From Escherichia coli 042 (lineage in GTDB: Bacteria; Pseudomonadota; Gammaproteobacteria; Enterobacterales; Enterobacteriaceae), in assembly GCF_000027125.1 (NCBI RefSeq), contig NC_017626.1: a DNA stretch of 64,000 bases. One strand, given 5' to 3'. This document shows, piece by piece, positions 7,923 to 39,487 of this stretch (the first letter of the stretch is position 1; each line of letters begins with the position of its first letter). Position numbers and translations under genes: made by a program. The notes under the pieces are model-generated. The model had not been told where the DNA came from and searched no databases. It saw only the letters and a list, made by a program, of their open reading frames with translations.

Positions 7923-9139
7923 TCCTTCCTCCTTTCTTTCATACGCTGCAGATAACGTTCATAGTGCCGGGGTTTGTTCGGACTGAAGGAGAGGGTACGG
8001 CACCAGAAATCATTCTTTATGAGAGTCTTACAGATACGTCGCCAGGACGGAATATCCCGGCTCCCCAAGTCATTCTCCTGTTCATCCGGGATGTCATCCG
8101 GGAAGCCCCGCGTCTGATACCAGCGCAGATAGACAGCTATCTTGTTGCGGTAATGTTCTGCCGTTCTTTCCGGCATCACATCCAGCAGAAACATCGCATA
8201 GCTGCGCCAGGTATGATGGGCTGGTTTTGATATGCGCTTACGCAGGGCAAAATAAGCCCCGCTTTCATTGGCATAAAGTGCCCCGCTGGCAGCCCCTGAC
8301 ACCCGCTCACACATCCTGGCCCAGGTTTCCGGCTCCAGAACATGGTAAAGCCACAGTCCCTTACGTTGTTCAGGACCAAAAGGTTCACAGACACGCATGT
8401 TGCGTAACGGTACGCCGGCACGGTACATCAGGTCATACAGGGGATTGTAGATGGCACGGGTTCTGGTGTGATATATCCAGATATCACGAGTTTTCCAGTC
8501 ATACAGCGGATACATGGTGTAGTAAAACCCTTCAGGCGATGCCGTGGTCCAGGGCTTATCATCGGCGTATCTCAGTTTGCGCTGGGATACCAGTCCCATG
8601 AACCGGTTAAGGGACTCATCCGCACGGACACCGGTCAGTACTGCCACACCACATTTATTGTCTGCAAACCAGGAAGAAAATGCCGGAACAAATTCTTCAA
8701 ACGTCATGGCATACCGGTAAAAGGGAAAATACGCCATATCTGTAATGGCCCCCTCCGGTGGCTGGCGAACCCACTTCACACCAGACTCCCAGCATATCCA
8801 CTCCGGCTGAAACTGAGAAACACCGTTTACCGTGGTCAGGGGAAGTGCCACCCAGTAAAAGGTTTCCGTCACATCATGGTACATTTCCCGCATCTTCTGA
8901 ATATGTTCAATGGTGCACTGGTACTGAGCCTCCCAGTCAATGAACAGTACAGAGAAACGACGTTTTTTCCTGCGGGCCACATCAGCCAAAAGATGGAAAA
9001 GCACGGTGGAATCTTTACCACCGGAAAAAGAGAGACAAACTGATGGAAATGTTTCAAAAATCCACTCAATACGAGCAATTGCTGCACGCAGAACATTCTC
9101 TCCAGTAAGGACTTTCTCCGTTAAAAAATTATCATTCAT
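7907..9139 (-). CDS. ibrA: PAPS reductase-family PP-loop ATP-pyrophosphatase-like protein, IbrA-like
   Basis: 410-aa ORF with PP-loop motif SFSGGKDST near the N-terminus; size and pairing with a ParB-like gene match the ibrA/ibrB pair. Confidence 0.75.
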   Translation of the reverse strand: MNDNFLTEKVLTGENVLRAAIARIEWIFETFPSVCLSFSGGKDSTVLFHLLADVARRKKRRFSVLFIDWEAQYQCTIEHIQKMREMYHDVTETFYWVALPLTTVNGVSQFQPEWICWESGVKWVRQPPEGAITDMAYFPFYRYAMTFEEFVPAFSSWFADNKCGVAVLTGVRADESLNRFMGLVSQRKLRYADDKPWTTASPEGFYYTMYPLYDWKTRDIWIYHTRTRAIYNPLYDLMYRAGVPLRNMRVCEPFGPEQRKGLWLYHVLEPETWARMCERVSGAASGALYANESGAYFALRKRISKPAHHTWRSYAMFLLDVMPERTAEHYRNKIAVYLRWYQTRGFPDDIPDEQENDLGSRDIPSWRRICKTLIKNDFWCRTLSFSPNKPRHYERYLQRMKERRKEWGIL

Positions 9140-16108: not shown

Positions 16109-16657
16109 TCACTGAGCTGTAATCAATGTACAGCGCTGTACCGGACGATGGGTAATGGCGGTCACAACCGGTAACCCCAGAGACAATGCGACTGTTTTTA
16201 ACGCAACATACTGACCGGATGTATCACCCCGGGCAACCCGAAAACACCTTTCCACCCGGCATTGTCCGCCAGCACTTATCACCTGCCAGCTATGTTGCAG
16301 TAAATCCACCACTTGCGAACATTGTTCATCAACTGTGACACTGGCTCGCGGGTGACAAATACTCGTCTGGCTGAGCAGCAACAGGCATCGAATTGTTGCT
16401 CCTTCATGTTGTTCCCGCAACCAGCGTAATACCACCGGAGAGGATGGACTGGCAGTGTGATTACGCTCAGTAATACGTTCATGCAGTTGTCGATAAAAGG
16501 AAGTACAGAATGCCTGAATCTGTTGCCCGTTGATGTTTCCTTCAGCCGAATGGAGCGTGAAGTGGACTGCCAGCAGACGCGGCCAGTGGTCCACCGCCTG
16601 CTGAACAAAACGCCGGATGTCTCCCGGCTCTGAAATTAAGGCTTCGGTTATTTGCAC
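16109..16657 (-). CDS. YagK/YfjJ-family (inovirus Gp2-like) protein
   Basis: 182-aa ORF with GTG start lying inside the left island repeat; core (VVLRWLREQHEGATIRCLLLLSQ) parallels the other YfjJ-like ORFs in the window. Confidence 0.45.
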   Translation of the reverse strand: MQITEALISEPGDIRRFVQQAVDHWPRLLAVHFTLHSAEGNINGQQIQAFCTSFYRQLHERITERNHTASPSSPVVLRWLREQHEGATIRCLLLLSQTSICHPRASVTVDEQCSQVVDLLQHSWQVISAGGQCRVERCFRVARGDTSGQYVALKTVALSLGLPVVTAITHRPVQRCTLITAQ

Positions 16658-16730
16658 GAAATGTTCCTTTTCAAACCCTGTTGAATTTTGTTAAGCCAGT
16701 GCAGACACAGTAAAGCGCGCATCAACACCT
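16641..16730. repeat. Left copy of ~90-bp imperfect direct repeat flanking the microcin island
   Basis: Aligns to 29420..29512 at ~80% identity with a 1-nt indel; 29-bp core ttgaattttgttaagcc(a/g)gtgcagacaca differs only at the a/g position. Confidence 0.7.
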
Positions 16731-17087
16731 GAAATGATGGTTTTATTCAGAGTATATGACTTTCTTTTACCCGCTCAAGATACGTTCCCTAGCGATATCA
16801 TCAGAAGTTTATGTGTTGTGTATCCATCCATATTAATCTGGTTCCAGTTTTCGGTATATGTCATGAGGAAACATTACAAATATATTCTGGAGCGGAGAAA
16901 GGAAATTGAAACCGTTTCAGAAAGGTTGATACGTGAGGCTGATACGAGAGAATATGAACTATGGCGTCCTGCCCGTCGTTTTTTCTCCATTCTTTTTATT
17001 GTTCTATTAGTTTATATTCATTCACTGATAACAACTATAAAATAAAAATTATGGCTGTTCTGATACCGGAGAAGAAACGTTCATTCT

Positions 17088-29071: not shown

Positions 29072-29419
29072 TAAAAAAGTCCGTCTTCTGCTTACCTGTT
29101 TATTTTTCTATCGCTAAGAAAACATAATTAATATTATTTTTATGTGAGCTTATGCACAAAAATAACCAAGTATCTTATCTTCTGGTAGAGATACAGGATA
29201 CAGTTTGTAGGAGCTTTCTTTTTTGAACAATGAGTTACAGGACAGTTATGCCAACCTACCGGAATCAGTATCACACCAATAAATGACAGATCATACCTGA
29301 AATTTGAATTAACAGGCATCATGAATGTCAATAGTCTAAGCGGTTACTACTTACATCGCTTGCATAAATACTAAACACTGACTAGAAAAGTATTGGATAA
29401 CCCCGTCACTAAAAGTAAC

Positions 29420-29512
29420 GCTTCGGTTATTTGCACAGAATACGACTCCTTCAGACTCTGTTGAATTTTGTTAAGCCGGTGCAGACACACGGGAAGGTGC
29501 GCATCAACACCG
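29420..29512. repeat. Right copy of ~90-bp imperfect direct repeat flanking the microcin island
   Basis: Aligns to 16641..16730; on the minus strand it retains the first six codons (VQITEA) of the YfjJ-like gene found after the left copy, then diverges. Confidence 0.7.
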
Positions 29513-29705: not shown

Positions 29706-29942
29706 TCATGCTGCTGCTCCTCGTGATTCCTCAATTCGCTGCTGCATCCACTGCTCCACTTCACTTTTGTACCAGCGGCTGCTGCGGCCCAGCTTGATGG
29801 GTTTCGGGAAATGGCCTTCACTGATCAGCTTGTAAAACCATTTATCTGTCATACCGGTGAAACTGGTGATGTAGTTCATGTCGATCAGGGGATCGTCGGC
29901 ACGCAGCAACACGCAGTCGTGGCCTGTCATTGAGGTCAACAT
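29706..29942 (-). CDS. alpA: AlpA-family prophage regulatory / excisionase-like protein
   Basis: 78-aa ORF; C-terminal region (GHFPKPIKLGRSSRWYKSEVEQW) matches the AlpA family pattern. Confidence 0.7.
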   Translation of the reverse strand: MLTSMTGHDCVLLRADDPLIDMNYITSFTGMTDKWFYKLISEGHFPKPIKLGRSSRWYKSEVEQWMQQRIEESRGAAA

Positions 29943-30010: not shown

Positions 30011-30586
30011 TCAGAACGGTCCTGCAGATCCGGGATAGCCGGGATTACCGGCGAGGCAACGGGCTTCCGGATCGCACACACCACGACGATCGCGGGCGAA
30101 ATCACTGAACGCCCAGATCAAATCTTTGAGGATGTCTTCGCAGTCCGGTGAACGACTGTCCAGCACCACATCCCGGGTTATCTGTTTCTGGTACGGTGCC
30201 GCTTCCCCCGGTGACGCGAAGCCCAGTACGTTGCTCCAGGCATCCAGAATCAGCCGGTCCAGTTCGGGGCCGTCGAAATACTCCTGTCTGACGCACAGCA
30301 CCACGTGGTATTCCGGCTTTTCCGGATGACGGGTCAGGAGCCAGCAAAGGTCGCGTCCGGGTTTCGCATTCATCAGCGCACTGACGGTTTCGATAAAATC
30401 CATACCAAACCAGGTCTGTCTGCTGTTGAAGGCGTTGTCATGTTCCCACGGCAGACGAAGCAGGATCCGCCGTATCCGTGAGCCGGACTGCTCACGCAGC
30501 GCACGCTCAAGGACGCCGATGACTTTGTTCTGATAAGATGGCCAGAAGGGTGCCAGGCTATAGTCGAAATAAGGAATAGCATTCAT
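30011..30586 (-). CDS. YagK/YfjJ-family (inovirus Gp2-like) protein
   Basis: Track ORF starts at GTG 30718; likely true start is internal ATG (MNAIPYFDY...). Paralogous to 30833..31399 and 37556..38287. Confidence 0.5.
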   Translation of the reverse strand: MNAIPYFDYSLAPFWPSYQNKVIGVLERALREQSGSRIRRILLRLPWEHDNAFNSRQTWFGMDFIETVSALMNAKPGRDLCWLLTRHPEKPEYHVVLCVRQEYFDGPELDRLILDAWSNVLGFASPGEAAPYQKQITRDVVLDSRSPDCEDILKDLIWAFSDFARDRRGVCDPEARCLAGNPGYPGSAGPF

Positions 30587-30832
30587 AAGATATGTTCCGT
30601 TATGCGCAGCCCACAATGCGTCCTGCCCGTGAATGAGCTGACGTGTTATGGCTTGCGGATGAGATTGATGGAATAAGTGAAGAACTGAAGCAGAACGGGA
30701 AGATAAGGGACAGAACACCGGATTCAGGTTCAGGATGAATGATCTCCGTTGACTTCAGTTCACATCATTAATCAATGCGGTAAGTTTTTACCGACGGAGT
30801 GTTTCCAGGAGCGGAGGCTCAGGCCTTAAGCT

Positions 30833-31399
30833 TCAGAAGTGAGGCTTACGAGGACGCCCTGCAGCAGGACGTTCAGGAACTTCATTGCAGCCGTAGGCAC
30901 ACAGCCCGTCTTTTTGTTCTTCTTTCGCCAGATAATGCAGGGCACCGCGAATATTATCGATGCTTTCAGGATCGTTGTGGCGCACAGGAATGTTGATGTT
31001 GTATGCATAATGCGGCTGATATGTACAGCGGTGCGCCGAACCACAGTTATACGTAATTGCCTGCCAGCATTCCGCTATCCGCTCCGCAAAGGGATATATT
31101 TTTTTAACCCTCTGACGATCGATCCAGAAAACGACATGCGCATGAAAACCATGATCAGCCGTCCATTCAATCACCCAGAAGAAACCAACGATATTTTCAA
31201 ATTGTTCCACCTGCTCCAGCAGCATACGCAACTGCAATTCAAGCCAGCGATGATCAGGTTGTAAGAAATCAGGCGTATCTTTCCTGTAGAAGAAATCCAT
31301 GCGTAAGGCCCGCAGGCAGGAATAGCGTGCCATCATTTGATTGATGTGATTGTCAAGTAAAGCGGTAAAAAACCAGTTTGGTGTGTAAGATTTAGGCAT
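30833..31399 (-). CDS. YagK/YfjJ-family (inovirus Gp2-like) protein
   Basis: 188-aa ORF (HAHVVFWIDRQR core) in tandem with the previous paralog. Confidence 0.55.
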   Translation of the reverse strand: MPKSYTPNWFFTALLDNHINQMMARYSCLRALRMDFFYRKDTPDFLQPDHRWLELQLRMLLEQVEQFENIVGFFWVIEWTADHGFHAHVVFWIDRQRVKKIYPFAERIAECWQAITYNCGSAHRCTYQPHYAYNINIPVRHNDPESIDNIRGALHYLAKEEQKDGLCAYGCNEVPERPAAGRPRKPHF

Positions 31400-32826
31400 G
31401 TTGATGACTCCTGAAAGTTAATGATGTTTTAAGCTCTGTGAACGAATTAATGCTTTCGCTCATAATCAGATCTAAAACGGTAATAACTTACAGATGGTAT
31501 TTATCAGGCATGCTGTAGCAGAATGGATACGACGGGTTATTAACGATACGCAGCATTATGCAGAAAGAAATGGATTATCTGATGGTATTAGCTAAAGAGA
31601 TGAGATAAACGAGGAGTAAAGAAAATACAGACTCAATAAAACATCACGAAATACTGCAAAATACGCGATAAAACACCACGACCAGAAGGTTAAGAAACAT
31701 ATTGCGACCAATCATAAACTACAAACTTGCTCTCAGTGGTTGTAAAAACCGTGTACAAGGCCAATGCAATAAACTTATATGCGCTCATTCAATCTGTTCT
31801 TAAGGACATGAACATTCACGGCTCACGATAGCAGAATAAAAAATACCACTGACATGATTTTCATCCTGCATCTTAGATAATACAACCCAGAACAAACATA
31901 ATCAGGAATCTCTCCTGTCAATTCCATTGTTTATCCAGCTCTGTTAATCGTTACAGAATCATGGATACCTTATCAAAAAGTAAACATTCGGTTAATCAGT
32001 AATGACAAAAGAATTGATGTTCATCAGAATAGTTAAAACACTTCAGATAAACAATTATCGTTAAGTAAATACAGTTCATGATGGATAAGATTAAAATCAA
32101 TTACTGTTTCAGTGAAGACTGATAACAGATGAATATCATCAGTAGAATGGTAGAGGATAACTTATCTGAGTATCGTATGAATTACAGTAGTTATGCCTAA
32201 TGAAGAAGGAAGTGGATATTATGATAATGGTGACAATGAAGATTAGACAAAGAAGAGTGTGAGTAAAGACAGAGTGAATATAATTATAGTAATAAACCTA
32301 AATTAAAATTATCCATGTTTGATGTAAAATAATAATATACTGACAACCATGAAGATAAGAAAAAGAGAGTGCAGGTATCAGGAAGATCTCAGGATATGAA
32401 GATTCCCACAACACAGATTTAAAATCAGTCGAATATAATAAATTTAAAAACCTTAATTAAAATGTAATCTCATCCATGGTTAACATGCTCCTGAAAAGAA
32501 AATTTACAAATACCGTATGCTACCAACTAATTACAACAATGATATATGTACATTCAATAAGAATACAGATAAAATATTAATACCAACTTCCAGTATCAAG
32601 ATCGTATCGCGAACTTCAGATGCGCTATGAGGCAGTTCAATTTTTAACTTTCGTTTTCCTCTTCCTCCCTGGCTTCATATGCATAAGCGACTTGAAAGAC
32701 CCGATGATAGTTACAATTTCAGGTTGTGGCATGACGATCAATTTGTAACTGAAACAATGAACGGTAACGCTGCCATATAAACATCAAAATGCGAGCATTA
32801 CAGCGACATTGAACCGATTAGATGTA

Positions 32827-33573
32827 TCACTCATAATCAGAACAAGATGATGTATCCTGAGATATAAGAAAATCATCAAGAGAACCTCCGGCTTTTATTG
32901 CTTCTGCAATAACATTAGGCCGACGACCTTGTCCACTCCAGTACATTGTTTGACCGTTATACTCATACCTGTATTTATTAGACTCTCCTGAATCGTTTTT
33001 CCTGCCCGTCTGTAATTTTTTGCCAAATTCACGTTCGTCGATCATGGTAATGATATAGCGACGCATTTCACCCATTCTGAGCTCAATGGCGTCCATCCCA
33101 ATGAGCTCACCGGTCTTTACCGGACGGTAGTGCTTTGGCCGGCGGGGTTTGGCGGTTCGCTTTTTGACAAGCAGAGCCTTACCCCGCGAGCTCAGACGTA
33201 CTGGTATCATCCGCATTTTATCGTGTGCGGTGGCGATCATTCTGCCGATGGTGGAAACACTCGGGCAGGTCAGATGGCGCTGTGCGCACCAGGGCTTCAG
33301 GCGAACAAAAATCTGCTCTTTACCGAGGTTTGGCAGCTCTGTCCTGAGGCGTCGAATCTCTTTCAGCACATCGGGATGCCAGTGCTTTTTTCGTCGCACC
33401 AGAGGTGCCTTACTGTGCGGGATTAGCCCCTCAGGTCCTCCCTTGTTCAGTAACTGACGCCACCAGTAAAGCGTGCGGCAGGACACGCCAAAGGCTTCAG
33501 AAGCCGCAGAAATACCGTGTTTATCCCAGAAGTGCAGAGCCTTCATTCTCATTGTTGCTATATCAGCTGTCAC
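32827..33573 (-). pseudogene. Truncated IS481-family transposase-like gene (HTH plus start of DDE domain, then unrelated tail)
   Basis: N-terminus (LHFWDKHGISAASEAFGVSCRTLYWW) and GELIGMDAIELRMGEMRRYIITMID resemble IS481-family transposase up to the start of the catalytic core. Confidence 0.4.
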
Positions 33574-34102
33574 GAACGGTGCAATAGTGATCAGCCATCA
33601 CTGAAAGCCTCAACGCATAATCGGCCGTTTAGGATAGCCAACCATCAGATGCTGCATTTGCATAGTGCAATCTCCCCTTACTTATCCGGAGGCAATTGCA
33701 ATATCTCTGTGAACTTACACATAGGTGTAATCAATAAGGGCGTACGGAGATTGCCCGTTATTGCTGCAGGATCGGCAGACTGGTTTCCGTCCTTGCGCAT
33801 ATAACTGTACAACTACAGAGAAAAGCATCAATGCACGCTTTATGTTGCGTCAGGGCAGCGAACGACTCCTTTTGTTGACGACACATATCACCTTCTGTAC
33901 TGCTAATTATGGCATTCAGCGTCTCCCCGAGTTTTAAGCTCCTGCTCTTACGAACCAGCGACAAGCAATAAATAACTATGGCAATGAATCTAATAACAGC
34001 ATAAATATGAGACTCATCGATACTCATCGTGATTAGTATAATCGGGGCATAATTGGGGCAGAATTATATTCACTGTCTGATTTATTATTGGGTTAAATAT
34101 AA

Positions 34103-34555
34103 TTAAAGTGTTCTCAAAAGTCTGGCTGGATTACCGGCATACACGCCTTTTACCAGTACGGGCTTTGTAACCACACTACCAGCACCAATCACTGCTCCAC
34201 TGCAAATTTCTGTTGTTAAAATGGTCGCTCCGCTACCCACTGTTACAGTGTTACCTAATACGATGCGTATCCAGCTTTCTGCAGAGGCATCGGGACCACC
34301 ACACTTAAAAAGATCATTAGCAAAAGTTACGCCATGACCGATGAAACAGCCATCACCTAAAATGACGTTCTCACAGATGAAACTGTGGGACTGAATTCGG
34401 CTCCGGTTGCCAATGATACATCCCTTCTGTATTTCCACAAAGGGACCGATAAAAACATCATCCCCCAGTTCACATTCATAGAGGTTTACTGGCATGACGA
34501 CTTTCACATTTTCACCAAATTTCACATCACGAATGCGGCTGTCAATAACGTTCAT
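34103..34555 (-). CDS. Left-handed beta-helix (hexapeptide-repeat) acyl/acetyltransferase
   Basis: 150-aa ORF with repeated hexapeptide pattern (IGNRSRIQSHSFICENVILGDGCFIGHGVTFAND). Confidence 0.6.
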   Translation of the reverse strand: MNVIDSRIRDVKFGENVKVVMPVNLYECELGDDVFIGPFVEIQKGCIIGNRSRIQSHSFICENVILGDGCFIGHGVTFANDLFKCGGPDASAESWIRIVLGNTVTVGSGATILTTEICSGAVIGAGSVVTKPVLVKGVYAGNPARLLRTL

Positions 34556-34962
34556 ATCCGTTGTATCCTCCCTCAGGATGATTCTTATCAGAACATTTCA
34601 CCTGTCAGAATATTCCCGGTAATGTGATACAAGAGCCAGTCTCACCGGGTACCACGTGTTATTGCCCGTATCCTTTTACCCGTTACGAGTGTACAACCGG
34701 TTTTATATTTTGCAATCCAGGCCTGTTACACCAGAGCATCCTCTCACTGCCCCCTCACTGGTCAATCCGGGATTCAAATTCATCCTCCAGCACTAAACCC
34801 CATACCAGTCCTGAACCTTCCCTCGCCAGCAGCCAGACTCCTACTGTTCACCACAATCCTCTTCCGTGAATGGCCGTAAGTGCGCAGCACCAAAATAATG
34901 AGGTAGCCTGAGTTTAACGGACACTCCTTCCTGAAATAGAATGGCATCAGAAGGAGCTAATA

Positions 34963-35225
34963 ATGAGCAGAAAAACCCAACGTTACTCTAAAGAGTTCAA
35001 AGCCGAAGCTGTCAGAACGGTTCTTGAAAATCAACTTTCGATCAGTGAAGGCGCTTCCCGATTATCTCTTCCTGAAGGCACTTTAGGACAATGGGTTACC
35101 GCCGCCAGAAAAGGGCTCGGTACTCCTGGTTCCCGCATGGTGGCTGAACTGGAATCTGAAATTCTGCAACTGCGTAAGGCGTTAAATGAAGCTCGCCTTG
35201 AGCGAGATATATTAAAAAAAGCAAC
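34963..35225 (+). pseudogene. IS600-like orfA, interrupted near its 3' end by IS30
   Basis: HTH-type OrfA; reading frame runs into IS30 at 35226; original C-terminus (AYFAQESLKNSR) follows at 36447. Confidence 0.75.
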
Positions 35226-36446
35226 TGTAGATTCAATCTGTCAATGCAACACCCCTTTCAATTATCTCTTTCGGTGTTTTGAACTTCAGTGTCTTTCTCG
35301 GTCTGTTGTTTAGCTGAGCAGCAACCAGATCTAGTTCATGTTGAGTATATTGGGCAAGACATGTCTTTTTAGGAAAGTACTGCCGAATTAGCCCATTTGT
35401 ATTCTCATTTGTTCCCCGCTGCCAAGGACTCTGAGGATCGCAGAAGTAAACTTTAACGCCGGTGCTGACAGTAAATTCTAGATGTCTGGCCAGTTCCATT
35501 CCTCTGTCCCATGTCAGTGATTTTCTGAGTTCTGACGGTAAACTCAGGAATTTGTCGGTAAGAGCCTGATTTACTGAGACAGAATCTTTGCCCCTGAGTC
35601 TAAGGATGATCGTATAACGTGATTTTCGGTCTACAAGTGTGGCTATATGAGAGTTTTTTGTACCTGAGACTAAATCGCCCTCCCAATGCCCCAGAGAGCG
35701 TCTGTTATCGATATTTCGGGAACGTTCGTGAATTGGTGTTCCGTTCACTATGTTAATCGTACCTCTTTCGCCTTTGCGGGTATGACGCCTGCCATGGCGA
35801 AGGCTATGCGACCGTCGCAGATGCTGTATATTCAGGTGGTGTTGCGCTTCACGGCTACGAAAGTACAGCGTTTTATAAATTGTCTCAGGTGATATTCGCA
35901 GCGTTTTTTGACGTGGTTTTGTTCGCCTTAACCATCCTGATATTTGCTCTGGAGACCATTTCATCTCCAGCTTTTCCAGAACAAGCTTTCGCAATGGTAA
36001 ATTTTGATCCAGTAAGCACGGTTTTGGCCTTTTCGCCATTCTGTTGGCTCGGTTATTAGCATCAACAGCTTTGTAATAGCGTCTGCCCCGATTACGCTGA
36101 ACTTCACGTGAGATCGTCGAAGGACTGCGATTCAGCGCAGTAGCTATCGCACGAATGCTCATTTTGGCTGACAAACCAGCTCGTATCTCCTCGCGCTCAG
36201 ACAGTGTCAGGTGAGCTACAGCCCGCTTACGCTCATGGGGTTTTATGCCGCCAGTATCCCTTAACATAGTGAAGATCGTTCCGGGTTTTGAACCCAGGAT
36301 ATTCGCTATTTCACTGAAGCCTGTTCCGTTCTTCCATAGTTCAAAAACAGAGGCTTTTTCCTCTGCTGTAAATGTTCGTCTCATTCAAAAAACCTCCACA
36401 ACCCCATGTTTTCACATAACTGTTGCGTTGACCAATTGAATCTACA
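35226..36446 (-). mobile_element. IS30 (1221 bp) with 26-bp terminal inverted repeats and 2-bp AC target duplication
   Basis: Ends tgtagattcaat(c/t)... at 35226 (plus) and 36446 (minus); AC dinucleotide on both flanks; length matches canonical IS30. Confidence 0.9.
35233..36384 (-). CDS. insI: IS30 transposase
   Basis: 383-aa ORF (MRRTFTAEEKASVFELWKNGTGFSEIANILG...), the canonical IS30 transposase length and N-terminus. Confidence 0.9.
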   Translation of the reverse strand: MRRTFTAEEKASVFELWKNGTGFSEIANILGSKPGTIFTMLRDTGGIKPHERKRAVAHLTLSEREEIRAGLSAKMSIRAIATALNRSPSTISREVQRNRGRRYYKAVDANNRANRMAKRPKPCLLDQNLPLRKLVLEKLEMKWSPEQISGWLRRTKPRQKTLRISPETIYKTLYFRSREAQHHLNIQHLRRSHSLRHGRRHTRKGERGTINIVNGTPIHERSRNIDNRRSLGHWEGDLVSGTKNSHIATLVDRKSRYTIILRLRGKDSVSVNQALTDKFLSLPSELRKSLTWDRGMELARHLEFTVSTGVKVYFCDPQSPWQRGTNENTNGLIRQYFPKKTCLAQYTQHELDLVAAQLNNRPRKTLKFKTPKEIIERGVALTD

Positions 36447-36523
36447 ACAGCGTATTTTGCACAGGAGTCGCTGAAAAATTCGCGTTAATCGAACAATGGC
36501 GACAACAATTTCCCATTGAAGCG

Positions 36524-37342
36524 ATGTGTCAGGTATTTGGTGTATCCAGGAGCGGTTATTACAACTGGGTACAGCATGAACCCTCAGACAGAAAACAAAG
36601 TGATGAGCGGCTAAAACTGGAGATTAAGGTGGCACATATCCGCACTCGCGAAACATATGGAACCCGGCGGCTCCAGACGGAGCTGGCAGAGAATGGCATC
36701 ATCGTTGGTCGTGACCGACTGGCACGTCTTCGTAAGGAGCTAAGGCTACGCTGTAAGCAGAAACGCAAGTTCAGAGCGACTACGAACTCGAACCACAATC
36801 TGCCAGTTGCGCCAAATCTGCTGAACCAGACGTTCGCTCCTACAGCACCAAATCAGGTCTGGGTGGCGGACCTGACGTATGTTGCCACACAGGAGGGATG
36901 GTTGTACCTCGCTGGCATCAAAGATGTTTATACGTGCGAAATTGTCGGCTACGCCATGGGAGAGCGCATGACAAAAGAGCTGACAGGTAAAGCCCTGTTT
37001 ATGGCGCTCAGGAGCCAGCGCCCACCTGCCGGGCTAATCCACCACTCTGATCGAGGTTCACAGTACTGCGCATACGATTACCGGGTCATACAGGAGCAGT
37101 TTGGTCTGAAAACATCAATGTCGCGTAAAGGTAACTGTTACGACAACGCTCCGATGGAAAGCTTCTGGGGAACGCTGAAAAATGAGAGCCTGAGCCACTA
37201 TCGTTTTAATAACCGGGATGAAGCCATCTCAGTAATACGGGAATACATTGAGATTTTCTACAATCGTCAGCGTCGTCACTCTCGTCTGGGGAATATCTCC
37301 CCGGCAGCCTTCAGGGAAAAATATCATCAGATGGCTGCTTAA
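36524..37342 (+). CDS. IS3-family (IS600-like) OrfB transposase catalytic subunit
   Basis: 272-aa ORF with DDE integrase core (HHSDRGSQY, GNCYDNAPMESFWGTLK). Confidence 0.85.
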   Translation: MCQVFGVSRSGYYNWVQHEPSDRKQSDERLKLEIKVAHIRTRETYGTRRLQTELAENGIIVGRDRLARLRKELRLRCKQKRKFRATTNSNHNLPVAPNLLNQTFAPTAPNQVWVADLTYVATQEGWLYLAGIKDVYTCEIVGYAMGERMTKELTGKALFMALRSQRPPAGLIHHSDRGSQYCAYDYRVIQEQFGLKTSMSRKGNCYDNAPMESFWGTLKNESLSHYRFNNRDEAISVIREYIEIFYNRQRRHSRLGNISPAAFREKYHQMAA

Positions 37343-37555
37343 AAAAAGAACAAATGGTAGTGTCCGCTATTGCCAGTACACCTCATAAATCGGTACTTCC
37401 GATGACAGACAGTGAAAGCGTAAGGAGAAATATGAACATGAGAATGGAAGCAGATACATGACTTCAGGACGACTTTTTCAGAAAACGAGCTAAGGGCGTT
37501 GGCTGACGCCCTTACTGTGGCATAAGCTCAGGCACCGGATGCCGTTTTACAGGGT

Positions 37556-38287
37556 TCACCTGCCATCCAGTAGACGCCCCGGCCCACGACTGCAACCATA
37601 ATTACGTTGCCCGGAACCGTTATGCAGCTTCGTTTCATATTTCACGAGATAACTGGCTCTGTTCCGGGCTTTCTGCAGCGCTTCCACATCACCACGCTTG
37701 ATCCAGAGAACAGCGGCTTCACCCGGCTTTTTGTCTGAAGCCTTCCTGGTATCAGAACATCCACCCGACAAAGGCGTGTCATCGGAAGAAGGGCGAGCAT
37801 CAGACGATGCTGGTTTACGGGAAGGCGTCCACCTGGAAAAATGGACCTGGCCATCGCCTTGCCAGGGCTCAAGATGCAGGGCGCTGCACCATGCCTCTAG
37901 GATCATCGTCGCCAGCGAAGATGGTTCGCTGAAATCCCCGAGCGAGCACCAGGTATCTTTGTTGAGCAGTAATATCACGTGATAATGTTTCCTGCCATAC
38001 ATCTTGCCGAACTCCCGGCACCAGAAATAACGCAGGCTGGTTGCATGCACACGCTGATTGGCACATCTTTTTTTCCGCTGGTAAGCCTGAATTTTGGCTT
38101 TCAGGGATGCAAAAAAACGAGAAATCACCGCTGAATCCGGATCGGGATCCATGATGGTGACAGGCATATACTCAGGAAACCGTAAATCCACCCGGATTAA
38201 CGAGACGGCACGGTGTTGCACCAGGGCACTGTTGAGAATACTTTCAAAACGGGATAACCAGTAATCATTGTGTATTGGTTGATTCAT
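37556..38287 (-). CDS. YagK/YfjJ-family (inovirus Gp2-like) protein
   Basis: 243-aa ORF (RVDLRFPEYMP ... HYHVILLLNKD); third paralog in the window. Confidence 0.6.
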   Translation of the reverse strand: MNQPIHNDYWLSRFESILNSALVQHRAVSLIRVDLRFPEYMPVTIMDPDPDSAVISRFFASLKAKIQAYQRKKRCANQRVHATSLRYFWCREFGKMYGRKHYHVILLLNKDTWCSLGDFSEPSSLATMILEAWCSALHLEPWQGDGQVHFSRWTPSRKPASSDARPSSDDTPLSGGCSDTRKASDKKPGEAAVLWIKRGDVEALQKARNRASYLVKYETKLHNGSGQRNYGCSRGPGRLLDGR

Positions 38288-38956
38288 GATGAGAGATCTC
38301 CGTTGATTTGGATTGACTTCACATCATTAATCGCCGCGGTAAAACTTTACGGCATCCCACCAATGAGCAACGCCAATAGCTCCTGATTAAAACGGAATGA
38401 ATCGTCCCGTAACGAAAAGATAATCCTGCACACGACAGCAAAACGTAAAACAACGGCATGAATGAGCTAAATGTCTAAAGAAAAACTGCCTTTTCACATT
38501 ATTTTTCAGCGAGTGATCATACCAGCATCCCTAACATACGAAATCGCATCGTGATCGATCGCTGATTCGCCGAACAACTGATCGAATACACCTGAATCTG
38601 CACTAACATCCTGATGGGTAACGGAAGACTAAAAAACCAGTGTTCTATTGATTGCACGGAATGCCTGTGCGCTGGCCTGACCAGTAAGCACAATTCTACG
38701 AGTAGTAAGATATCTACTCCAAAACCATGCGCAGTAGCCACCATATGTTGCCAGGGTGAAAAATAAGCTCAGAACTATAGGGGAGTAATTCCCGTTAATG
38801 TCATCGCCGTACCTCAATCAGCTCACAAACTGGCTGAAACGTTAAGCTGAGGCCTTTATTCTTCAGATGTATTTTCCGGTTTACCTGTAAATTATCTTCT
38901 GATATTTATCACATTAGTAATTGTGCTGATTATCTACATACTTCAAGGTCTGAAAT

Positions 38957-39487
38957 ATGAAGCTAACAGAAGAAAGTCTGAATCTAGTCATTGACATCCT
39001 GAATGATTTGATCTGTGAAGGAAAAATGCTGAACGATGTGGAGCGCAGATCTCTGCTCAATGCAGTTATGGCAATTACAGCGGTAAAAGAACGTTCTGTC
39101 GTATCTGTATCATCCCGAAAAGAGCAAAGTAAGAAGGAGAAGAAGGAAAGAGAGATCGATCCTCGTTTCCCAAATGCTGGTGTGGCATGGAATGAGGCAG
39201 ACGAGAATTTATTGCGAGATGTTCTGGAGGATGTACCGGACGATGAAATTGGTAAACACCTTTTCTGGCTGGCAGAGAAACTAGGGCGAACCCCGTACAG
39301 TGTAGCCTGTAAAGTCAGACAAATTAAGAAATTACCTGCAGAATGGAAGGATCAATTTCGTAAAATCTCTGACAGGATCCGTAGTTCTGGAATGTCAGTC
39401 AGTGAATATCTACAACGCCAGGGACTGTTAAGCCCAGAGTCAGGGGAAGAAAACAATCCTGTCAGTCATAACAACAATGTAGCTTAA
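38957..39487 (+). CDS. Hypothetical protein
   Basis: 176-aa ORF, charged/Lys-Glu-rich middle; no family recognised by eye. Confidence 0.4.
   Translation: MKLTEESLNLVIDILNDLICEGKMLNDVERRSLLNAVMAITAVKERSVVSVSSRKEQSKKEKKEREIDPRFPNAGVAWNEADENLLRDVLEDVPDDEIGKHLFWLAEKLGRTPYSVACKVRQIKKLPAEWKDQFRKISDRIRSSGMSVSEYLQRQGLLSPESGEENNPVSHNNNVA

Follow-up and report, generated by a model that had tools for sequence, protein, structure and literature searches.

Why should two genes of one genomic island, whose proteins can scarcely be aligned with each other, be preceded by similar stretches of DNA? This question is raised by a 64,000-nucleotide stretch of Escherichia coli 042 (contig NC_017626.1), which was analysed as a whole and is called the window below. 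A sequence-only reading of the window had noticed a conserved block upstream of the open reading frames (ORFs) 30011-30586 and 37556-38287 and had proposed it as a common operator or promoter. The block is indeed present, with gatctccgttga, acatcattaatc and gcggtaa in both places. It is probably a regulatory element of an undescribed but fairly ordinary kind. The explanation that we favour, to which we give somewhat less than an even chance of being right, is that the block is a conserved promoter-proximal 5' control region in two layers, heading a 'gp2-like HUH gene then alpA' operon of islands of the P4-integrase type.

A non-coding block upstream of distant relatives

The argument turns on the following genes and segments.

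37556 to 38287, minus strand: copy-2 gene, 243 amino acids, YagK/YfjJ ('inovirus Gp2') family, with a predicted HUH endonuclease fold
38283 to 38350, minus strand: shared block of copy 2, non-coding, directly before the copy-2 gene and abutting its ATG at 38287
30011 to 30586, minus strand: copy-1 gene, 191 amino acids, a remote relative of the family with EYH in place of HYH and without the motif tyrosine
30722 to 30811, minus strand: conserved block of copy 1; the portion in common with copy 2 is 30729-30791
30731 to 30733, minus strand: lost start codon, a CTG homologous to the copy-2 ATG in the repeat alignment
30587 to 30730, minus strand: variable, indel-rich non-coding spacer from the copy-1 block to the copy-1 ATG, identity 0.45-0.58
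30833 to 31399, minus strand: paralog 3, 188 amino acids, gp2-like, with HAH and HYLAKEEQK motifs in the protein alignment
29706 to 29942, minus strand: AlpA-family gene (Pfam Phage_AlpA), the last gene of the gp2-like/alpA operon

The segments 30729-30791 and 38283-38350 are 77-80% identical over about 65 bases with one 5-nt indel. In a repeat search this pair accounts for the two longest direct-repeat families between 29.5 and 39.5 kb, in two registers offset by 5 nt; the 12-mer by itself is not significant (2 matches against 0.70 expected). Read in the direction of the genes, copy 2 is CCGTAAAGTTTTACCGCGGCGATTAATGATGTGAAGTCAATCCAAATCAACGGAGATCTCTCATC followed by ATG, and copy 1 aligns with it as CGGTAAAAACTTACCGCATTGATTAATGATGTGAA, a 5-nt gap, CTGAAGTCAACGGAGATCATTCATC and CTG. 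The similarity ends at both edges of the block and takes in at most two codons. Between the two proteins we found 28% identity over 39 amino acids (E 0.008), and they are otherwise nearly unalignable. The similarity is thus not confined to coding sequence carried over from gene duplication, and the non-coding position of the block next to such divergent genes therefore argues for a shared cis element.

Two ways of reading the block as coding sequence were rejected. For copy 2, the ORF 37556-38287 begins at the ATG at 38287, and no earlier start is found before a stop is reached. For copy 1, whose annotated ATG at 30586 comes about 150 nt after the block, a longer gene would have to begin where all 43 variants have CTG (33/43) or TTA (10/43) and none has ATG. 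The indel-rich spacer that such a gene would have to cross is open and in frame in 16 of the 43 variants, and we therefore regard it as non-coding.

Three YagK/YfjJ-like paralogs had been proposed, and the proteins behind this claim differ in how well they fit it. Copy 2 is a clear member of the family (Pfam YagK_YfjJ_C, PF11726, 116.2 bits, E 2e-33, above the gathering cut-off of 25.8); it also matches REP_ORF2-G2P at 35.9 bits, and has the features of the HUH superfamily, namely a His-hydrophobic-His motif, a catalytic tyrosine motif and a predicted HUH fold. Paralog 3 stays below threshold (PF11726 20.5 bits, cut-off 25.8; REP_ORF2-G2P 26.1 bits, cut-off 27.8), with its HAH and YLAK motifs in place in the alignment and the PGAP name 'inovirus-type Gp2 protein'. 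For copy 1 the similarity is remote only: the protein has no Pfam, NCBIfam or PHROG match, does not reach the PF11726 cut-off and, to judge from its sequence, is probably catalytically dead. A supposed fourth YfjJ-like ORF, 16109-16657, drops out, having neither a Pfam, NCBIfam or PHROG match nor similarity to the family (E 4.6); it is 90% identical to the ORF that comes right after alpA in a related island lacking the microcin insert. Across the gp2-like family the HUH motif and the tyrosine are kept, and PHROG and Pfam connect the family weakly with replication initiators. A sequence search of the PDB with the family profile gave no match, and the fold comparison alone was informative.

A bipartite signature at the head of the operon

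Within the block lies a core of two short boxes at a fixed distance, which a pattern search placed at three positions of the window.

38318 to 38343, minus strand: signature of copy 2, TTTACC-N14-TGTGAA
30759 to 30784, minus strand: signature of copy 1, CTTACC-N14-TGTGAA
31459 to 31484, minus strand: signature of paralog 3, ATTACC-N14-TATGAG, 62 nt upstream of the ATG in a longer and different leader

The pattern TTACC-N14-TRTGAR thus occurs 3 times in the window against 0.14 expected, each time upstream of a gp2-like gene. The view that only two of the paralogs share the block has to be given up, in that its core also stands before paralog 3 (31459-31484). A third E. coli subfamily has TTTACG-N14-TATGAA.

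Homologues with 30-45% identity are found in Providencia, Proteus, Morganella, Hafnia, Brenneria, Rosenbergiella, Oceanimonas, Alcaligenes, Vibrio, Marinobacter and others, mostly with alpA next downstream. We aligned the upstream regions of about 60 relatives from other genera on the start codon; the phage ECO111 5-P, an unannotated and unverified 4.5-kb contig, served solely as an extra family member. After a T-run, the aligned regions show TT(T/A)AC(N)-N14-T(A/G)TG(A/G)(A/C), and an inverted repeat then follows. Among 38 non-redundant relatives, TT[TA]AC-N14-T[AG]TG turns up in 15, against 0-1 matches for other spacers of 8-21 nt and 0.09 in shuffled sequences. There is an association between the signature and a gene order in which gp2 precedes alpA (10/11 against 6/21, Fisher p 0.002). 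At some loci where alpA comes first, a similar motif is found upstream of alpA instead, for example TTTACA-N14-TCTGAA in Marinobacter, and an alpA-first locus of the Neisseriaceae has CCGTAAAAATTTACC-N14-TCTGGA, which is strikingly close to the E. coli versions. Because the motif moves upstream of alpA in such loci, we take it to mark the head of the operon and not the start codon of gp2.

Several smaller observations concern the signature and its surroundings. A looser form, TTTAC-N15-TNTGA, also occurs on the minus strand at 8697-8721 and 49405-49429, away from gp2-like genes; its 3 matches against 0.75 expected fit chance, at least 3 being found in 4 of 100 shuffles. The conserved core contains a mini-ORF, ATG ATG TGA, at 38322-38330 and 30763-30771 (minus strand). 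At the equivalent TATG, relatives have ATG AAA TAA (Proteus) or ATG ACA TAA (Providencia, Alcaligenes), the ATG being kept and the peptide not. A conserved upstream ORF starting from the TATG was rejected, since frame and length vary by lineage (mini-ORFs of 1-9 codons, in-frame extensions, out-of-frame readings). All three leaders also have a GATC (Dam) site (38291-38296, 30741-30744 and 31469-31474), as AGATCT in copy 2 and paralog 3 and as GATC in copy 1. It lies between the Shine-Dalgarno (SD) sequence and the start, or former start, in copies 1 and 2, and inside the 14-nt spacer in paralog 3; as it is not kept outside E. coli, it may be a chance occurrence.

Among the nearest known counterparts are yfjJ and yagK of E. 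coli K-12, in CP4-57 and CP4-6. They share the protein family and the kind of island, and likewise have a hairpin before the start codon, but their upstream regions have a common motif of their own, GATAGGTAWTATATA, rather than TTAC-N14-TRTGA, and at different distances. The stretch shared upstream of yfjJ (locus L003, 5460-5500) and yagK (locus L004, 3120-3160) is GATAGGTA(A/T)TATATA, each time with a short perfect hairpin. The K-12 regions upstream of yfjJ, yagK and alpA were considered as homologues of the block and rejected, the block being absent and a different motif being found there; this motif may be a different solution to the same regulatory problem. Literature searches on yfjJ/yagK and on the block sequence found no description of the element among the papers of the library searched.

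Of 5426 complete E. coli genomes, 1872 have a block of the copy-2 type at 94% identity or more, and a single genome may have as many as 6 copies; YagK/YfjJ-family genes with their AlpA partners are found in genomic islands that a considerable part of E. coli genomes possess. In metagenomes, a pattern scan gave two spacing types and no others, both as in the window, with the core upstream of the gene in all loci (61/61 of the copy-1 type, 79/79 of the copy-2 type). The distance from core to ATG in these loci is a constant 45 nt for copy 2 and 187-224 nt for copy 1. Even a copy-1-type gene with only 62% protein identity keeps the exact block. Counting only positions not fixed by the search pattern, the copy-2 block is 0.996-0.998 identical among 67 distinct loci, against 0.94-0.95 at codon positions 1 and 2 and 0.888 at position 3. 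In 23 regions that were not selected on the copy-1 block, this block is 0.88-0.99 identical, compared with an identity of 0.854 for third codon positions and of 0.42-0.83 for the spacer. Block conservation tops that of first and second codon positions in both copy types, and by these comparisons the copy-1 block is still under purifying selection, despite its lost start and hairpin. Several genomes have the order copy-2 block, copy-2 gene, terminator-like hairpin, copy-1 block, spacer, copy-1 gene, alpA, and because of this order we regard copy 1 as an internal, derived repeat of the 5' region of the operon.

A predicted leader hairpin over the ribosome-binding site

At its end nearest the gene, the copy-2 block is predicted to form a hairpin that includes the start of translation.

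38277 to 38335, minus strand: predicted leader RNA hairpin covering SD and AUG, in which ATGATG pairs with CATCAT, GATT with AATC, and an inner UCC with GGA, including part of the SD
38298 to 38301, minus strand: Shine-Dalgarno GGAG of copy 2, read from the sequence, 10 nt before the ATG at 38287-38285

Folded as RNA, the copy-2 leader reaches -16.6 kcal/mol (z -2.33), which 4 of 200 shuffles equal or better. The CATCAT arm takes in the A and the U of the start codon, and the translation initiation region (TIR) has a probability of being unpaired of 0.20 against 0.48 in shuffles. As single-stranded DNA the hairpin is not significant on either strand (z -0.31 and +0.15). In these models the copy-2 hairpin qualifies as a TIR-occluding leader, being more stable than shuffled sequences and pairing SD and AUG. 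The copy-1 leader does not: it has no significant structure (z +0.5) and its start codon is gone. The leader of paralog 3 has a different hairpin (z -1.66), which leaves the TIR free.

The tendency is seen across the family. Among 57 distinct members, leaders from -55 to +12 have a mean folding z of -1.97, with values below -1.64 in 58% of them. Compared with controls in which the upstream part alone was shuffled, the accessibility of the TIR is reduced (Wilcoxon p 0.0016), with 12 of 49 members at or below the 5th percentile. In most members the SD or the AUG falls within the 3' arm, and this in unrelated sequence contexts, such as CCGTATG/CATACGG-AG in the third E. coli subfamily, TTCTAGATATGA/TCATGTCTAGAA in Proteus and ATTACCTATG/CATAGGTAAT in Alcaligenes. 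Between Proteus and Morganella the stems, as read from the sequences, show compensatory differences. On these predicted folds, the most likely explanation of the gene-proximal part of the block is a hairpin in the mRNA leader that covers the ribosome-binding site.

Known leaders with a hairpin at the TIR include translational operators, RNA thermometers and start-stop or mini-ORF leaders. As in these, the stem-loop pairs the SD and/or the AUG, beats shuffles and recurs in relatives with different sequences, and here a 2-codon mini-ORF (AUG AUG UGA) lies in the 5' arm. What is unusual for such leaders is that the hairpin of the block comes at a set spacing after a DNA signature that does not vary. 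A known small RNA or cis-regulatory RNA was rejected as an identification of the block: Rfam 15 gave 0 matches in the window at the gathering threshold, and lax searches of both blocks gave E values above 1.

Control region, operator or origin

The two-layer control region that we favour would work as follows. The first layer is the DNA signature, consisting of an A/T-rich TAnnnT-like element, TT(T/A)AC, exactly 14 nt and T(A/G)TGA; it would mark the start of the operon, and would probably hold the -10 region, the transcription start and a box for RNA polymerase or a regulator. The second layer is the transcribed copy-2 leader. The 3' arm of its predicted hairpin contains both SD and AUG, so that little Rep-like protein would be translated before the hairpin is opened; candidates for opening it are a ribosome engaged on the AUG-AUG-UGA mini-ORF of the 5' arm and a trans-acting factor. 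Copy 1 would be an internal derived copy that lost the start codon and the hairpin, gained a variable 150-nt spacer and kept the first layer, whose simplest role would be to act as an internal promoter, or as a regulatory site, for the copy-1 gene and alpA. The conserved operon-head signature, the leader hairpin and the predicted HUH fold with intact catalytic motifs offer an entry to how such islands switch on excision-related genes.

The first layer depends on where transcription begins, for which the copy-2 upstream region offers one candidate.

38344 to 38370, minus strand: candidate weak promoter, TTGCTC (38365-38370), 15 nt, TAAAGT (38344-38349), suggested by the conservation pattern and below the scan threshold

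Within E. coli, regions of the copy-2 type have a conserved TTGCTCA, 7 variable nt, a conserved GATGCCGTAAAGTTTTAC, a variable CGCGGC and then invariant sequence up to the ATG. From this pattern we infer that TTGCTC-15-TAAAGT could be a weak promoter with its start near the end of TTTACC. A TAnnnT-like element also stands right before TTAC in most relatives. The earlier idea of a common promoter or operator therefore survives in part: the motif tracks the head of the gp2/alpA operon and leaves room for a weak promoter, but no sigma-70 consensus site was found and the 14-nt spacer does not suit one. The signature boxes themselves cannot be a -35 and a -10; TTTACA/TATGAA was rejected in this role because the two boxes are invariably 14 nt apart and the last base of the second one is A or C, never T. 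Consensus sites for sigma-28, sigma-32, sigma-54, sigma-E, CRP and IHF, compared by eye, were likewise discarded, giving a partial match in copy 2 only or no fit, with none conserved in relatives.

Several results weigh against the control region as we propose it. Requiring a spacing of 16-18 nt between the hexamers, 9 or more matches out of 12 and a -10 with A2 and T6, the sigma-70 consensus scan found no site in either block on either strand. The spacer of TTGCTC-15-TAAAGT is short, and its equivalent in copy 1 is poorer. The 14-nt spacing and the invariance of TTTAC/TATG are not explained by the hairpin alone, and copy 1 is maintained with neither hairpin nor start codon. Occlusion of the TIR is not universal: the SD lies in the loop in the Proteus group, and Hafnia and the locus L128 are unoccluded. 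The copy-2-type leader is invariant within its type, which leaves no covariation to test. Finally, the fold energies of the family show no asymmetry between sense and antisense; RNA and DNA hairpins are therefore indistinguishable there, and the inverted repeats could act in DNA.

Some of these points would be met if the block were an operator, bound by an island protein that autoregulates the operon, with the AlpA-family winged-helix protein, the gp2-like protein or the copy-1 protein as candidates. We consider this unlikely. The two boxes are 20 bp apart from start to start and would lie on the same face of the helix; the gap of 14 nt between them does not vary from genus to genus, which would suit recognition on duplex DNA. 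The motif tracks the operon head and is found together with alpA, the copy-1 boxes are constrained without a start codon or hairpin, and folding lacks strand asymmetry. The boxes, however, form neither a clear direct nor a clear inverted repeat, the motif is absent from K-12 alpA and yfjJ, and an operator leaves unexplained why inverted repeats so frequently cover the SD or the AUG. In CP4-57, AlpA activates intA, and AlpA and P4 Vis-type proteins are known as excisionase-regulators; here, too, an AlpA-family gene lies in the same operon of a P4-integrase-type island. The 'AlpA' antiterminator of Pseudomonas has its helix-turn-helix in helices H7/H8, with contacts R128-H142, and its site GGGACG lies between -35 and -10 (PMC9371919). 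Its elements (the ABE GGGACG and a -10-like pause) were rejected as a model for the block, no resembling site being found here and the protein being a different one of helices H1-H8 (PMC9371919).

The protein fold is what makes an origin attractive. On this alternative, which we think improbable, TTAC-N14-TATG and the adjacent hairpin would be the cognate DNA substrate, a putative origin-like recognition or nick site, of a domesticated HUH endonuclease of the YagK/YfjJ 'Gp2-like' family, through which the excised island could undergo rolling-circle replication or strand transfer. In known systems, the origin of an HUH Rep protein can lie just upstream of rep, as in the intergenic region before gene II of Ff phages and the stem-loop TAnTATT↓AC of geminiviruses, circoviruses and nanoviruses. 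The block likewise places an HUH-fold gene after a short invariant T-rich ...TTAC and a hairpin with a variable stem. The TTAC stands at a set distance from the hairpin upstream of a rep-like gene, as in the origins of filamentous phages and CRESS-DNA viruses, and invariant short motifs with covarying stems are typical of HUH substrates; the kept HUH motif and tyrosine of the family and its weak links to replication initiators in PHROG and Pfam fit as well. If this were true, common P4-integrase-type islands of enterobacteria would carry a module of Rep, origin and AlpA/Xis, and could replicate or be mobilised in single-stranded form once excised, which would change the view of these 'cryptic prophage' islands. 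The origin is weakened in that the motif follows the operon head, shifting off the gp2 gene in some alpA-first loci, and in that the copy-2 hairpin is unstable as single-stranded DNA on both strands. In addition, the motif lies outside the hairpin loop, the fixed distance reaches the top of the stem and not its foot, which suits a duplex reading better, and copy 1 has no hairpin.

The block might also have no function, as a recombination or gene-conversion tract or the remnant of a recent duplication that hitch-hikes with the genes, and copy 1 does resemble a decayed duplicate. The islands are mosaic: what precedes the copy-2 block, and likewise the spacer of copy 1, varies from genome to genome in entire segments. 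We regard a non-functional block as highly improbable, given that the core signature and its exact spacing persist in genera where protein identity is down to 30-45% and that the block is conserved above nearby non-synonymous positions. We attach very little credence to a promoter on the plus strand of the window, TTCACA-16-TAAAAC, for a divergent transcript leading away from the gp2-like gene: the reverse complement TTCAYA-16-TAAAAN has a legal spacer and a -35 with 4-5 of 6 matches in most relatives, and divergent genes do lie upstream in many loci (including a YfjP-like GTPase and, in the window, ORF 38957-39487), but the -10 lacks a conserved final T in most members and failed the scan, the closest divergent gene is 450-600 nt away, and the copy-1 transcript would enter paralog 3 in antisense.

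The island around the block

The window, which is 100% identical to E. coli BEC1-S17-ESBL-09, holds a genomic island of the CP4-57/P4-integrase kind that adjoins cadC and contains YfjP GTPase, DUF932, antirestriction, RadC/JAB and CbeA/CbtA genes. The microcin H47 island and several insertion sequence (IS) elements are inserted into it. Paralog 3, copy 1, the AlpA-family gene and copy 2 are all on the minus strand. The assignment of ORF 29706-29942 to AlpA rests on Pfam PF05930 (40.8 bits, E 2e-10, gathering cut-off 21 bits). Downstream of the copy-2 gene the island is cut by IS600/IS30, shortly after a hairpin.

37491 to 37514, minus strand: terminator-like hairpin directly past the copy-2 gene, TAAGGGCGTCAGCCAACGCCCTTA, then a T-rich tail

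In other genomes the copy-1-type block comes after this hairpin. In the window, the sequence past it diverges after ...ATCTGCTTCC and enters IS600.

A direct repeat of about 100 nt is found on both sides of the microcin H47 island (16660-16760 and 29400-29500), and takes in the first 17 nt of a 182-amino-acid ORF (GTGCAAATAACCGAAGC). In strain EC5 the repeat sequence is single, between the small ORF adjacent to alpA and the 182-amino-acid ORF; because EC5 has it only once, we take the microcin island to be an insertion into the gp2/alpA backbone that duplicated its target or recombination site. The uninterrupted version of the island in EC5 also has a gene for a ProQ/FinO-family RNA-binding protein a few genes downstream of alpA (locus L002, 624-968), conceivably a candidate trans-acting partner of the structured leader. 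Of the IS elements, the IS30 copy at 35214-36458 (transposase 35233-36384) sits within IS600, a member of the IS3 family, and splits its transposase genes; the terminal inverted repeats of this IS30 are at 35214-35251 and 36421-36458.

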